Of a DNA stretch of 64,000 nt, positions 13,112 through 29,253 are shown piece after piece. Each line of letters begins with the position of its first letter. The first letter of the stretch is position 1. The translations under genes were made by a program, and so were the position numbers. Location of the stretch: assembly GCA_050951765.1 (NCBI GenBank), contig JBMNJR010000003.1, positions 195,148 to 259,147 of the forward strand, in the 5' to 3' direction. The stretch comes from a bacterium. GTDB taxonomy: Bacteria; Bacillota; DTU030; JBMNJR01. Below the pieces are notes generated by a model that worked only from the letters and a program-made list of their open reading frames with translations, did no database searches and was not told the DNA's origin.

Positions 13112-14143
13112 TTAACCGATCCCAAACTGGTCTAAAAACCGCTGATCATTCTCAAAAAACAACCTGATATCATCGATCCCATATTTAAGCATGGCAATCC
13201 GTTCTACACCCATGCCAAAGGCAAAACCGGAAACCTCCTCCGGATCATAACCGGACATTGCCAATACCTTGGGATGAACCATCCCTGCCCCTAAAATCTC
13301 CAACCAACCGGTCTGGGAACAAACACCACATCCCTTACCGCCACAAATAACACAAGAGATATCAACTTCCGCACTGGGTTCTGTAAAGGGGAAATAACTG
13401 GGACGGAATCTCACCTTGCGATCAGCGCCAAATAACTCCTGGGCAAAAAGGGTCAGAACCCCACGTAAGTTCCCTAAAGTGATACCGTGATCAATAGCTA
13501 AACCCTCCACTTGATGAAACATTGGTGAATGGGTACTGTCTGCATCACGGCGATAAACTTTGCCCGGGCAGATAATACGCACCGGTACATTGGGCGCTTG
13601 TTTTTCCATTGTCCGTACCTGTACCGGGGATGTATGGGTCCGCAAAAGAATCTCCTCCGTGATATAAAAGGAATCCTGCATATCCCGCGCCGGATGAATT
13701 TTCGGCAGATTTAGCGCTTCAAAATTATAATAATCTGTTTCTATTTCTGGCCCTTCCACCACACTGAAACCCAAGCCGGTAAATACCCGTTTTATTTCCC
13801 CTAAGACTAAAGTGAGTGGATGCTTATTCCCTGTCCTCGGTCTAATACCCGGCATAGTAACATCAATTTTTTCCTGCCGCAGGCGTTCTAACTGTTCCTG
13901 TTGTTTTAAGTACGCCAGCCTTTTCTGAATCAATGCTTCCAACCGTTCCCGCAGGTCATTTGCCATATTCCCTACCAACGGGCGCTCACAAGGTGGCAAA
14001 TCCTTCATCCCCCGCAGGATTAAAGTCAGTTCCCCTTTGCGCCCCAGATAATGCACTCGCTTTTGATTAACCTCCTCTAAACTGGCAGCGGCAGCAATAG
14101 CTTGCTGTGCTTCTATTTCCAATAACTTTAACTTTTCTTGCAT
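13112..14143 (-). CDS. pheS: phenylalanine--tRNA ligase alpha subunit
   Basis: Class II aaRS motifs are present ([21 protein letters not shown]). The start is set at ATG 14143 (MQEKLKLLE...), preceded by AAGAGGAGGG. The 39 upstream codons in the ORF track overlap the T-box leader. Confidence 0.95.
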
Positions 14144-14159
14144 TATTTGCCCTCCTCTT

Positions 14160-14446
14160 TTGATACATAATAAAAAAAGCCTTCCTCCCCTAAAGGGACG
14201 AAAGCTATGTTCCGCGGTACCACCCTCGTTGATGACTGTCATCACCCACTTACCAGGCAAACCCCCTAATAACGGTAGGGTTCCGGGCCCGCCTACCCAG
14301 CTGTAAAAAAGCCTTCAGCAGCCAGCTCCGGAGCGAACTTCAGCCCACCTACCCTGAGGAATGCTTACAGTCGCTGACATTCCCTCCCTGCCAGGGCAGT
14401 TTGAACTTACTCCTCTCCTTCTTCACCTGTTTCGTACTAAAAACCT
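14160..14446 (-). promoter_or_regulatory. T-box leader (Phe specifier UUC) with terminator/antiterminator
   Basis: The minus strand carries the T-box core AACGAGGGTGGTACCGCGGA (14211-14230), then the terminator GCTTTCGTCCC..GGGGAGGAAGGC plus a T-run. A GAA-G-UUC-G specifier-like element has UUC at 14337-14335. Confidence 0.85.
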
Positions 14447-22589: not shown

Positions 22590-22845
22590 TAACACAAAAC
22601 CCCGCTCCCAATAATAGGGACGGGGTTAACCGCGGTTCCACCCTAGTTGGCCAGCATCATGCTTGCCCACTTGGTTTATCAGTAACGGGGACTACCGTAC
22701 CGGTCTACTAATTTCAACCGGTCATTCTTGGGTGGTTTTCAACCGTCCAACACCTGAAGATGCTTGCAGCCGTCGACATCTCCTCTCTCAAGGCAGACTA
22801 CGGTTTACTTTTCCCAATCATCATTTTTTCCACGTATCTTAATCA
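22590..22845 (-). promoter_or_regulatory. T-box leader (Thr specifier ACC) with terminator
   Basis: The minus strand carries the T-box core CCAACTAGGGTGGAACCGCGG (22650-22631) and the terminator CCCCGTCCC..GGGAGCGGGG plus TTTTGTGTTATTT. GAAA-ACC-A has ACC at 22736-22734. Confidence 0.85.
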
Positions 22846-22851
22846 GCATTT

Positions 22852-22881
22852 ATTATACCCCTTTTTGTCAGCAATTGTCAA
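22852..22881 (-). promoter_or_regulatory. consensus sigma-A promoter of thrS
   Basis: Minus strand has TTGACA (22881-22876), an 18-nt spacer and TATAAT (22857-22852). Confidence 0.7.
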
Positions 22882-22888
22882 GGGATTG

Positions 22889-22899
22889 GGGCAACTGAG
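22889..22899 (+). repeat. left copy of an 11-bp direct repeat GGGCAACTGAG
   Basis: Identical to 24662-24672. The flanking bases differ on both sides. Confidence 0.9.
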
Positions 22900-24661
22900 G
22901 GTCGCGTCAAGATACTATGGGTTGTAAGGAAAAAAGTATTCCCTCATCGATCCCTATCTTCGTTGCTGTCACTAGCGTCCCTGATATTGACCGTTTGAAG
23001 ACTACGTAAACAGCGAAACATCCGAACCACTTTTACCCCTCTTTAAAATGGGTATGTTGCCGAACTGGTTTCGTGTAGATGCGGTAAGCGTACGCTCGGC
23101 TCATAATTTCCCGGTCCAACTCTGACCTTCCATGCTATCACTTTGAACTGCCGCCTTTATCTCCTGAATAAATGCTATCGTACTATCGTTCCCGCCACTT
23201 GCTACATAAACGCTCGTAGTTCCTGGCCATCTGGTCGCACGCCCGTTCTTGGCTCCAGCCCATGGGGCGGCTTGAGCTTAACCTAGCTCGACAGAGATAT
23301 GGCTCACATGACCTTCTGTACAGCTGCAGCCAGCATAATCTGCATCGATACTGACGCATTACTACTGCATCCCAGTTCCCAAGTATGGTTACATATCTAT
23401 GGCATTCCTGCACAGTATCTTCTCTCTGTCTCAGAGGCACTGCCAGCCTTTTGGTATAGGCCTTTGATGATTGCTCTAAAGAGCTCTCTTTAATCTAGCC
23501 GTGTCTCCGACAGTGCTGTAGTCCCACATAGCAGTTGCTGTAGTCTATCCCGGTGATGCGCTCGTAGCAGTGCGTGACGTGCTTTGATTCAGGTGGTAAC
23601 GGTCCAGTACATAGATGCTTCCTGTTGGGAAGCCAGCCTAGGCCCTTCTTTTATCCAGGCCGCCCCATCACCATGAAAGATAGATCTTGTTCTATCGTCA
23701 TCGGCATATCATAGGCCTCATCTATATCCAGTCTGCCGCCTCTACCCATAGGTCATCACTGTCTTGCATACCACTCCACTGACATACCTGTACTGGGTAT
23801 TGATAGCTAACTGCCGCGTCTTTCCTAACTGTCCTTTCTAGCCCTTCGTGGATGCATATACAAGCGGTACTATGGCTCTATAAAACCGCCATCCTGCAGT
23901 GGCTGCATGGTCTTCATCTGCATTCTATGTATAAGTACCGATGCCTGCCGTTTTATCGGTGGGCTAGATCTCTACTGCATCATTGTCTACACTACCAAGC
24001 GTCACGCTATACTGTTCATTCACTGTCTGTGCCTGCTTAGGCTTACTGCCCTTCGTAGACGCTATTTACTCCGCTTTTGCCGTAGCGCAGTATATCACGA
24101 GCTACATTCTATCAGCCTTTGCCTGTAGTGACAGCGGTGGCTAGCTCGTATCGTATGGGCTGCTATCCCTACTGCCTCATCCGATAGGTAGACTATGCTC
24201 ACCTGTTCCTTTGATTCATGAAAATAGGTCCTGCTGAATACCTGATCTGCTCCAAACTGTCGTCGCGAGGGTCTTCTCAGCCGCTTTATCTTTCCTACTG
24301 CTCCAGTACAATTCCGTCTTACGATCTTCTGCTGTGCTTTATCATGCATGATCTATGGATTTGTCCAAGGCTCCTGCCACGTACGCTTACTCCAATCTCT
24401 ACTCTGCAATTATCGGCCTTCTTCGTAGCAAGAATAACTTCGCAGTATCTCGCTATCGTTTCCCGTCCATCACCTTCAATAGAACATTCTGCATACCCCC
24501 CATATGAAATTTTGCACAGATTTCCTAGTAGAATTAGTATCCAACGAGAGTATCTCCTCCTCTGTGGTAATGTGTGGTGATGGCAACTTACATGATACCA
24601 CAGAGGAGAGACTCTGATCTCTTAGTTTCTGGTTTTTCCCCACAAGTAATTTTACACTAAC
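22900..24661. other. 1,762-bp ORF-free, insertion-like segment (non-autonomous mobile element, long non-coding RNA locus or artefact; nature unresolved)
   Basis: Bounded by the 11-bp direct repeat. The inner ends match as inverted repeats at 13 of 22 positions. No ORF exceeds 120 aa in six frames, and the ORF products are not protein-like. Every other part of the window is densely coding. Confidence 0.5.
24557..24608. other. strong hairpin near the right end of the ORF-free segment
   Basis: CTCCTCTGTGGTA (24557-24569) pairs perfectly with TACCACAGAGGAG (24596-24608). An inner ATGT/ACAT extension leaves a 16-nt loop GTGGTGATGGCAACTT. On the minus strand the 3' arm contains GGAGGAG, 9 nt before a TTG that opens a 22-codon ORF. 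Confidence 0.8.
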
Positions 24662-24672
24662 GGGCAACTGAG
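24662..24672 (+). repeat. right copy of the 11-bp direct repeat GGGCAACTGAG
   Basis: Identical to 22889-22899. It lies 7 nt from the TAG stop (24682-24680) of the DUF445 gene. Confidence 0.9.
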
Positions 24673-24679
24673 ACTACCC

Positions 24680-25279
24680 CTAAGACAATATTAAAATGAT
24701 TACCGCTTGCAACAAGCCGATCATGAATCCCAATATACCACCTAACACTTCAATATGCTTCAGCTCTGATCCTGCAACATTGATCACCATATTTTCAAGT
24801 TCATTCAAATCAATGGCTAATAGCTTTGCCTCCACCAATTGGCTAATAGACAGCTGTGCTTCCAATTGTTCCTCTACCCCGGCCAAAACTTGATTAAAGG
24901 CTGCTTCAGCTTCCCTTTGAACAAATCCCTGCAATGAACCGAACAAAATTCCCCGTATATTCCCCGGGAGAAAAAATGGAACCCTGTTTTCGACCCGTTC
25001 AGCTACCACAGCCGCAATATTTTTCAACATCCCCCCGCGCAACTCCGGTTTATTCAAGTGCGCCAGCAAGTCACTAGTGGAGAAGAGTTCCTTTTCTACC
25101 GTTTCGCCAATGGTACGGGCTAATTCCGCTTGGCGTTTAGGGAGAAGCCCTTGAATTTCCCACCCTATTAAAGGTACCCGCCAAGGAGAATGGGGGTAAA
25201 AAAGCAGCCGAATGGCAATACGGTTTGTCACCCAGCCGATTAGAGCGCCAATTGTCGGCATGATTAATAATTCTAACAT
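24680..25279 (-). CDS. DUF445 family membrane protein
   Basis: 199-aa ORF. The N-terminal GALIGWVTNRIAIRLLFYP motif and C-terminal TM helix are typical of DUF445. Confidence 0.7.
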   Translation of the reverse strand: MLELLIMPTIGALIGWVTNRIAIRLLFYPHSPWRVPLIGWEIQGLLPKRQAELARTIGETVEKELFSTSDLLAHLNKPELRGGMLKNIAAVVAERVENRVPFFLPGNIRGILFGSLQGFVQREAEAAFNQVLAGVEEQLEAQLSISQLVEAKLLAIDLNELENMVINVAGSELKHIEVLGGILGFMIGLLQAVIILILS

Positions 25280-29178: not shown

Positions 29179-29253
29179 TGGTGGGTCCGAGAGGATTTGA
29201 ACCTCTGGCCCCCTGCGCGTCAAGCAGGTGCTCTCCCCCTGAGCTACGAACCC
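29179..29253 (-). tRNA. tRNA-Val (anticodon GAC), CCA encoded
   Basis: Minus strand reads GGGTTCGTAGCTCAGGGGGAGAGCACCTGCTTGACGCGCAGGGGGCCAGAGGTTCAAATCCTCTCGGACCCACCA. I folded it by hand into a cloverleaf with a 7-bp acceptor (one G-U), a TTCAAAT T-loop and anticodon loop TTGACGC. Confidence 0.9.

Follow-up and report, generated by a model that had tools for sequence, protein, structure and literature searches.

The ORF-free segment upstream of thrS is most probably a product of assembly. We put at roughly 85% the probability that it is a nucleotide-scale merge, made during assembly, of two alleles of the ISLre2 family (called type A and type B below) over an ordinary insertion sequence at thrS. 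As written in the window (the whole 64-kb stretch of DNA that was analysed), the sequence corresponds to neither type A nor type B but comes close to their shortest common supersequence. The underlying locus shows a textbook case of ISLre2-family insertion beside a sigma-A promoter, and the ORF-free element is probably not a real feature. An earlier sequence-only reading of this DNA had named an assembly or chimeric artefact as the third of its three candidate explanations, and the evidence for a merge of A and B, which is presented here, supports that candidate.

The segment and its flanks in the window

The 11-bp sequence GGGCAACTGAG occurs exactly twice in the 64-kb window, with starts at 22889 and 24662; the intervening 1,762 bp contain seven ORFs, each of 62-120 aa, and 22-39 stop codons in every one of the six frames. 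The ends of this interval form a weak inverted repeat, in which 13 of the first 22 terminal positions match; its plus strand is rich in C+T (58.6%), and CTAG and CTATC occur eight and nine times, respectively. The direct repeat, the ORF-free interior, the weak inverted ends and each of these counts had been described in the sequence-only reading, and all of them were confirmed in the window. The segment is purine-rich on the minus strand, which is the strand of the neighbouring genes; its AT skew is unlike that of its neighbours, and a perfect hairpin of 13 nt is present in it. A recoded gene was ruled out on the grounds that all three stop codons are present in each of the six frames. The features of the region, in window coordinates, are as follows.

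22613..22830, minus strand: thrS T-box leader (Rfam match, 137 bits, E = 2e-30)
22881..22852, minus strand: thrS sigma-A promoter, perfect TTGACA-18-TATAAT, at a distance from the element end of 18 nt (window) or 17 nt (natural contigs)
22891..22899, no strand: target-site duplication copy on the promoter side, 9 bp, CTCAGTTGC on the minus strand; it lies within the 11-mer at 22889-22899 of the sequence-only reading
22900..24661, minus strand: ISLre2-family insertion sequence as assembled, a probable merge of type A and type B, 1,762 bp vs 1,568 bp in natural type A
22900..22935, minus strand: right inverted repeat (IRr), facing the thrS promoter, a probable merge of GATAGCGTCAAGATACTATGGGT (A) and GGTCGTGTCAAGTTGTTGTAGGA (B)
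22972..24490 (approximate), minus strand: remnant of a scrambled transposase gene (PF06782/UPF0236), from tblastn and the restored frame
24626..24661, minus strand: left inverted repeat (IRl), a probable merge of GTTAGTGTAAAATTACTTTGGGG (A) and CCTAGTGTAAAATAATTGTAGGA (B)
24664..24672, no strand: target-site duplication copy on the DUF445 side, within the 11-mer at 24662-24672
24680..25279, minus strand: upstream DUF445 gene, with its stop codon 7 nt from the duplication

For comparison, we used the natural metagenome contigs that encode exactly the DUF445 protein of the window or exactly its ThrS. L001, L002, L004 and L006 are among those found through the DUF445 protein, and L008 and L009 among those found through ThrS. 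All flank comparisons with these contigs gave 99.7-100% identity, essentially without indels; for example, the flank is 100% identical to L003 over 2,339 bp and 99.97% identical to L008 over 7,263 bp, a single mismatch and a single gap being the only differences. Next to the junction, the natural contigs have CCC vs CCCC in the window (GGGG at 22888-22891 on the plus strand), and the extra base may be an error. The GGGG..CCCC hairpin that had been placed at the insertion point is therefore seen in the window, but it rests in part on this possibly erroneous base.

Alleles at the thrS promoter in natural contigs

The natural contigs carry several different arrangements at this site.

L006: empty site, with the DUF445 stop codon, CTCAGTTGCCC once, and then the thrS promoter
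L001, L002: type A, a 1,568-bp element whose 462-aa PF06782 gene is intact, following ...CAGTTGCC
L004: the left end of type B, TAGTGTAAAATAATTGTAGGA..., which differs from that of type A and follows ...CAGTTGCCC
L008, L009: the right end of type B, ...CAACTTGACACGACC, again unlike that of type A, followed by CTCAGTTGCCC and the thrS promoter
L003, L005, L007: short-read contigs that end exactly at the junction

The empty site had been predicted from the window by deleting the segment together with one repeat copy, and it exists in nature: in L006, no element lies between the DUF445 gene and the thrS leader, and the repeat is present only once. The view that the segment reflects a transposon-style insertion was also borne out, in that ISLre2-family elements occupy the same site in natural contigs. 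The breaks of the three short-read contigs at the junction are expected where several alleles coexist. Type A was found at this site only in L001 and L002, both of which continue into alaS, not thrS, and lack the duplication; these two contigs may be chimeric or rearranged. The thrS promoter is polymorphic in this population: besides an empty allele, there are insertions of type A and, shifted by 1 bp, of type B. The promoter targeting published for the ISLre2 family is thereby illustrated in a natural community.

Type A, type B and their insertion points

The type A transposase matches PF06782 (UPF0236) with 300 bits (cut-off 24.3) over profile positions 7-399 of 400, and its homologues form a family of 2,639 proteins, mostly of 462 aa, with the NCBI name 'ISLre2 family transposase'. 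Further intact copies of type A were found in L010, recovered in the scan of metagenome contigs (92.7% identical, 4 gaps), and in L012, where the duplication is of 8-9 bp (CGACGCTT or CCGACGCTT). The natural copies in L002, L010 and L012 measure 1,568-1,570 bp and contain a 462-aa ORF, whereas the version in the window measures 1,762 bp and is ORF-less. We attribute the length of the window element and its missing ORF to the assembly merge and not to the organism.

The type B sequence in hand comprises 51 nt of the left end and about 185 nt of the right end. Type B is real and multicopy; its right end is also present at an unrelated locus in L011. At the known ends, A and B share 107 matching positions, or about 58% identity, with indels in both directions, and a hand count on the ends gave terminal inverted repeats matching at about 11/16 positions in type A and about 15/21 in type B. 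A search for full-length type B with its 42-aa C-terminus returned only a 45-aa fragment, an exhaustive HMMER search with that fragment returned two weak partial matches, and a scan of species genomes was without a match; nor is type B one of the 128 family proteins that we retrieved. This divergent lineage has no full-length representative in the databases searched.

The ISLre2 family, defined by Guerillot et al. 2014 (PMC3942029), encodes p-MULT 3 Mutator-like DDE transposases and makes direct repeats of 8-9 bp; its members insert 15-17 bases upstream of the -35 box of sigma-A promoters, most often at 16 bp from IR-right, and in a fixed orientation in which IRr adjoins the promoter (PMC3942029). 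Repeats of 9 bp are also given for the family in PMC8024623. Every natural copy that we fetched has 15-17 nt between the element and the -35 box: 17 nt to TTGACA at thrS (L008 and L009), 16 nt to TTGACA for type A at the alaS promoter (L002), 15 nt to TTGACA in L012, 16 nt to TTGACA in L011 and 16 nt to TTGCGC in L010. The corresponding distance at thrS in the window is 18 nt, with one extra C. The true target duplication is probably the 9-bp sequence CTCAGTTGC, and the 11-bp repeat would then arise because this duplication is joined by the initial CC of type B, which happens to match the target. Promoter targeting by the family accounts for the finding of two different members 1 bp apart.

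Relation of the segment to type A

In an end-to-end collinear alignment with unit costs, the segment has 198 extra, 0 missing and 162 mismatched bases relative to type A; the same comparison of a natural pair, type A of L002 and the copy in L010, gave 14 extra, 4 missing and 104 mismatched bases. The extra bases, about 11% of the segment, are distributed over its whole length, and the changes are base-specific, G being kept at 98.9% of positions and A at 81.7%. The sequence-only reading had held that no transposase is present. However, frameshift-tolerant tblastn with the type A transposase finds an ISLre2-family remnant on the minus strand, in two frames (23032-23862, E = 3e-21; 23643-24380, E = 3e-11); such a recovery had been listed in that reading itself as a result that would refute it. 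When the bases absent from type A are deleted, a frame of 462 codons with 4 stops emerges that is 77% identical to type A. Among 5.8 billion proteins, none is closer to this de-inserted ORF than type A (77%), and the differences therefore do not point to a known third lineage. The largest ORF of the element as written is not on record in an exact look-up.

We rejected a natural diverged homologue with random insertions, given that type A is still the nearest protein and that the non-A bases agree with type B. DGR-like adenine mutagenesis, which was considered because A-to-N changes dominate, fails on the T-to-C/G changes and on the 198 insertions. A merge of A and B accounts for the A-to-N changes, the T-to-C/G changes and the 198 insertions alike.

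Three-way comparison with type A and type B

Over the 270 nt where both A and B are known, all 270 window bases match A or B. At the right end (the last 205 nt), 115 bases match both, 45 only A, 45 only B and 0 neither; at the left end (the first 65 nt), the corresponding numbers are 40, 17, 8 and 0. Where type B is known, non-A bases match B in 53 of 53 cases. The source alternates between A and B every 1-5 nt in the window, 87-94% of each parent is retained at the ends, and a comparison of the window with type B over its known ends gave 22 extra bases and 1 missing base. Even the junction is merged, as GTTGCCCGTTAGTG contains both GTTGCC followed by GTTAGTG (A) and GTTGCCC followed by TAGTG (B). 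When 'A plus random noise' was simulated, a mean of 22.7 bases (range 14-33) matched neither parent, and B was matched at a mean of 117 positions and a maximum of 126, vs 160 observed. All bases of the ends are attributable to two real parents and are interleaved, between flanks that are 99.97-100% identical.

For the interior, where type B sequence is lacking, support comes from the zero-deletion relation to type A and from an indirect test, a skip-tolerant protein-to-DNA alignment with 20 noise controls per protein. With type A-like transposases, the score of the element is what A plus noise would give (z = 0.8); with family members that are only 50-65% identical to A, it exceeds the noise controls by z = 4-5. 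From this excess, a signal of a second homologue is apparent in the non-A bases throughout the gene.

Only 3 of the 1,732 31-mers of the element occur in any natural contig fetched. The 31-mer CAGTTGCCCGTTAGTGTAAAATTACTTGTGG, which spans the junction, is specific to the element. A blastn-type check for further copies of the segment, which the sequence-only reading had proposed, found none in the window, in plasmids, in phages (distant blastn) or in 185,579 species genomes, and the metagenome contigs gave only intact type A (L010).

Alternative explanations

Could the segment be real DNA? It might be a dead, non-autonomous ISLre2 derivative, belonging to a third lineage between A and B and mobilised in trans after the decay of its transposase. 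Its termini and duplication are intact and a transposase remnant is detectable; moreover, a third lineage would have some A states and other B states, and promoter targeting makes repeated insertions at one site expected. We nevertheless regard this as unlikely. First, decay gives deletions too, whereas the segment has 198 extra and 0 missing bases relative to A, and 22 extra and 1 missing relative to B. Second, no lineage-specific base occurs in the 270 nt, and 87-94% of two parents is retained even though these parents are only about 58% identical. Third, a switch of source every 1-5 nt is beyond recombination. Fourth, the flanks are essentially identical to those of strains with intact-looking A or B ends at the site, and the ORFs of the element are not on record elsewhere. 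The large non-autonomous element that the sequence-only reading had put forward also fares poorly here, because further copies are absent from the window and from every collection searched, namely plasmids, phages, the 185,579 species genomes and metagenome contigs.

It is quite unlikely that a gap in a short-read assembly was filled by one uncorrected long read of a single insertion sequence, with the extra bases representing random insertion errors. Such a patch would explain why the damage is limited to a repeat that short reads cannot span while the flanks are clean, why extra bases (about 11%) run along the whole length, and why a homopolymer difference (CCCC vs CCC) adjoins the junction. 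However, the match of non-A bases to B (53/53, with 0 matching neither parent) is far from what random noise yields (mean 22.7 and minimum 14 matching neither), the substitutions are strongly base-specific (G retained at 98.9% vs A at 81.7%), and the non-A bases add a family-like coding signal (z = 4-5). In addition, zero deletions in 1.76 kb is, to our knowledge, not a familiar error profile of raw long reads.

Highly improbable, in our judgement, is a real ISLre2 copy in which about 200 scattered single-nucleotide insertions, together with AT-to-GC substitutions, wrecked the transposase gene and yet left the ends, the duplication and the flanks perfect. If true, it would imply an unknown insertion-biased hypermutation or silencing process directed against mobile elements in a Firmicute, in effect a bacterial counterpart of fungal repeat-induced point mutation, or, alternatively, templated patch-wise conversion between two diverged elements.

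Finally, the earlier candidates had included cargo in the form of a long RNA, non-coding or structured. Transcription of such a cargo from the minus strand would suit an ORF-free insert that is purine-rich on the strand of the neighbouring genes and has a 13-nt perfect hairpin, but it is scarcely credible: Rfam searches at the gathering score and at E <= 10 returned no match other than the thrS T-box and, on the hairpin, miRNA noise; the whole length is collinear with a protein-coding insertion sequence; and the collections searched yielded no ORF-less homologues for a covariation analysis.

Proposed origin of the probable merge

How could two alleles have been fused in this manner? We consider that an ISLre2-family insertion sequence would have inserted between the DUF445 gene and thrS, with IRr facing the sigma-A promoter 17 nt upstream of the -35 box and with a 9-bp target duplication flanking the insert. 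In the source community, the thrS promoter would have been struck independently by type A and by type B, 1 bp apart, while the empty allele persisted. The merge itself most likely occurred when long reads from a mixture of strains were polished or turned into a consensus; we infer this step from the sequence pattern. The identical flanks would anchor the reads of both alleles, which would thereby be forced into one alignment, and where A and B differ, the merge would keep the bases of both or pick one. A heaviest-path consensus through an alignment graph favours longer paths and would therefore keep the insertions of both alleles. The merge would add about 200 bases in this way and would thus destroy every reading frame. 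One NCBI contig of 384,395 bp, which runs through a multicopy repeat, encodes the proteins of the window; this contiguity and the CCCC vs CCC difference beside the junction fit an origin in long reads.

Decay would also delete bases and leave lineage-specific changes, and recombination would give blocks; neither, therefore, yields a supersequence of the kind seen here, and no natural process, whether mutation, decay or recombination, gives such a common supersequence. The merge of A and B also removes a paradox that the sequence-only reading had raised, namely that a perfect duplication is hard to reconcile with a transposase gene decayed beyond recognition. Because the gene was scrambled in the assembly and did not decay in the organism, a perfect duplication beside an unrecognisable transposase is no longer paradoxical.

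The merging of two alleles in a long-read metagenome assembly can thus mimic an ORF-free 'novel element' with a perfect target duplication, and such regions otherwise risk being catalogued as new non-coding elements or as dead transposons. A usable test is to ask whether an odd sequence is a supersequence of two natural relatives.

Comparison with known systems

The segment resembles the collapsed-haplotype or collapsed-repeat consensus errors of long-read metagenome assemblies, in that only a polymorphic multicopy segment is damaged, with perfect flanks on either side, and in that the bases of two alleles are found in a product longer than either. It differs from them in that the merged alleles are unusually divergent (about 58% identity at the ends). 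With MITEs and other non-autonomous derivatives of insertion sequences, the segment shares terminal inverted repeats, a target duplication and, as written, the lack of an intact transposase gene. However, MITEs are normally short derivatives with internal deletions and are present in many copies, whereas the window element is longer than its parent, single-copy and collinear with a full transposase gene. There is also a likeness to the ISLre2 family, for which we found a transposase of the PF06782 family, imperfect and asymmetric terminal inverted repeats, a duplication of 8-9 bp, and an oriented insertion that places IRr 15-17 nt upstream of the -35 box; natural copies of this family measure about 1.57 kb and have a single ORF, and in these two respects the window element, with its 1,762 bp and no ORF, differs. 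The type of transposase found in the ISLre2 family is also common to the TnGBS conjugative elements.

Alleles at the thrS promoter

The thrS promoter (window 22852-22899) is polymorphic in the source population. Among the natural metagenome contigs compared with the window, the site was found in the following states:
L006: empty site
L004, L008 and L009: type B at the site
L001 and L002: type A at the site, 1 bp from the position of type B

Types A and B are two diverged insertion sequences. The site is a natural example of a single sigma-A promoter that was struck by two members of the ISLre2 family. In L001 (6078-7652) and L002 (2480-5450), DUF445 is followed by the type A element and then by the T-box leader of alaS and alaS itself, and the flanks of the element lack the target duplication. 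This arrangement is the product of rearrangement between two copies of type A, or else a chimera of short reads formed via identical copies.

The junction is directly adjoined by a difference in homopolymer length. Window positions 22888-22891 read GGGG (CCCC on the minus strand), whereas three natural contigs (L006, L008 and L009) have three bases there; because of the extra base, the element lies 18 nt from the -35 box in the window, as against 17 nt.

The type B lineage

Type B forms a multicopy, divergent lineage of ISLre2-like elements, represented by these stretches:
L009, 1-187
L011, 1-195
L004, 2290-2341

Full-length type B was not found among 5.8 billion proteins, where the sole match was a 45-aa fragment, or among 1.84 billion cluster representatives, which gave two partial matches, both weak.

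RNA features and a hairpin

The window contains the following further features:
14191-14432, minus strand: second T-box leader (101 bits), whose coordinates overlap the longest ORF call (13112-14260) at the 5′ end of that call
29179-29253, minus strand: tRNA-Val (GAC)
24557-24569 and 24596-24608: arms CTCCTCTGTGGTA and TACCACAGAGGAG of a perfect 13-nt hairpin

The hairpin (24557-24608) shortly precedes the start of the transposase, with the GGAGGAG ribosome-binding site overlapped by one of the arms; the type A counterpart of the hairpin is imperfect. The hairpin appears to resemble the translational occlusion known from many insertion sequences.
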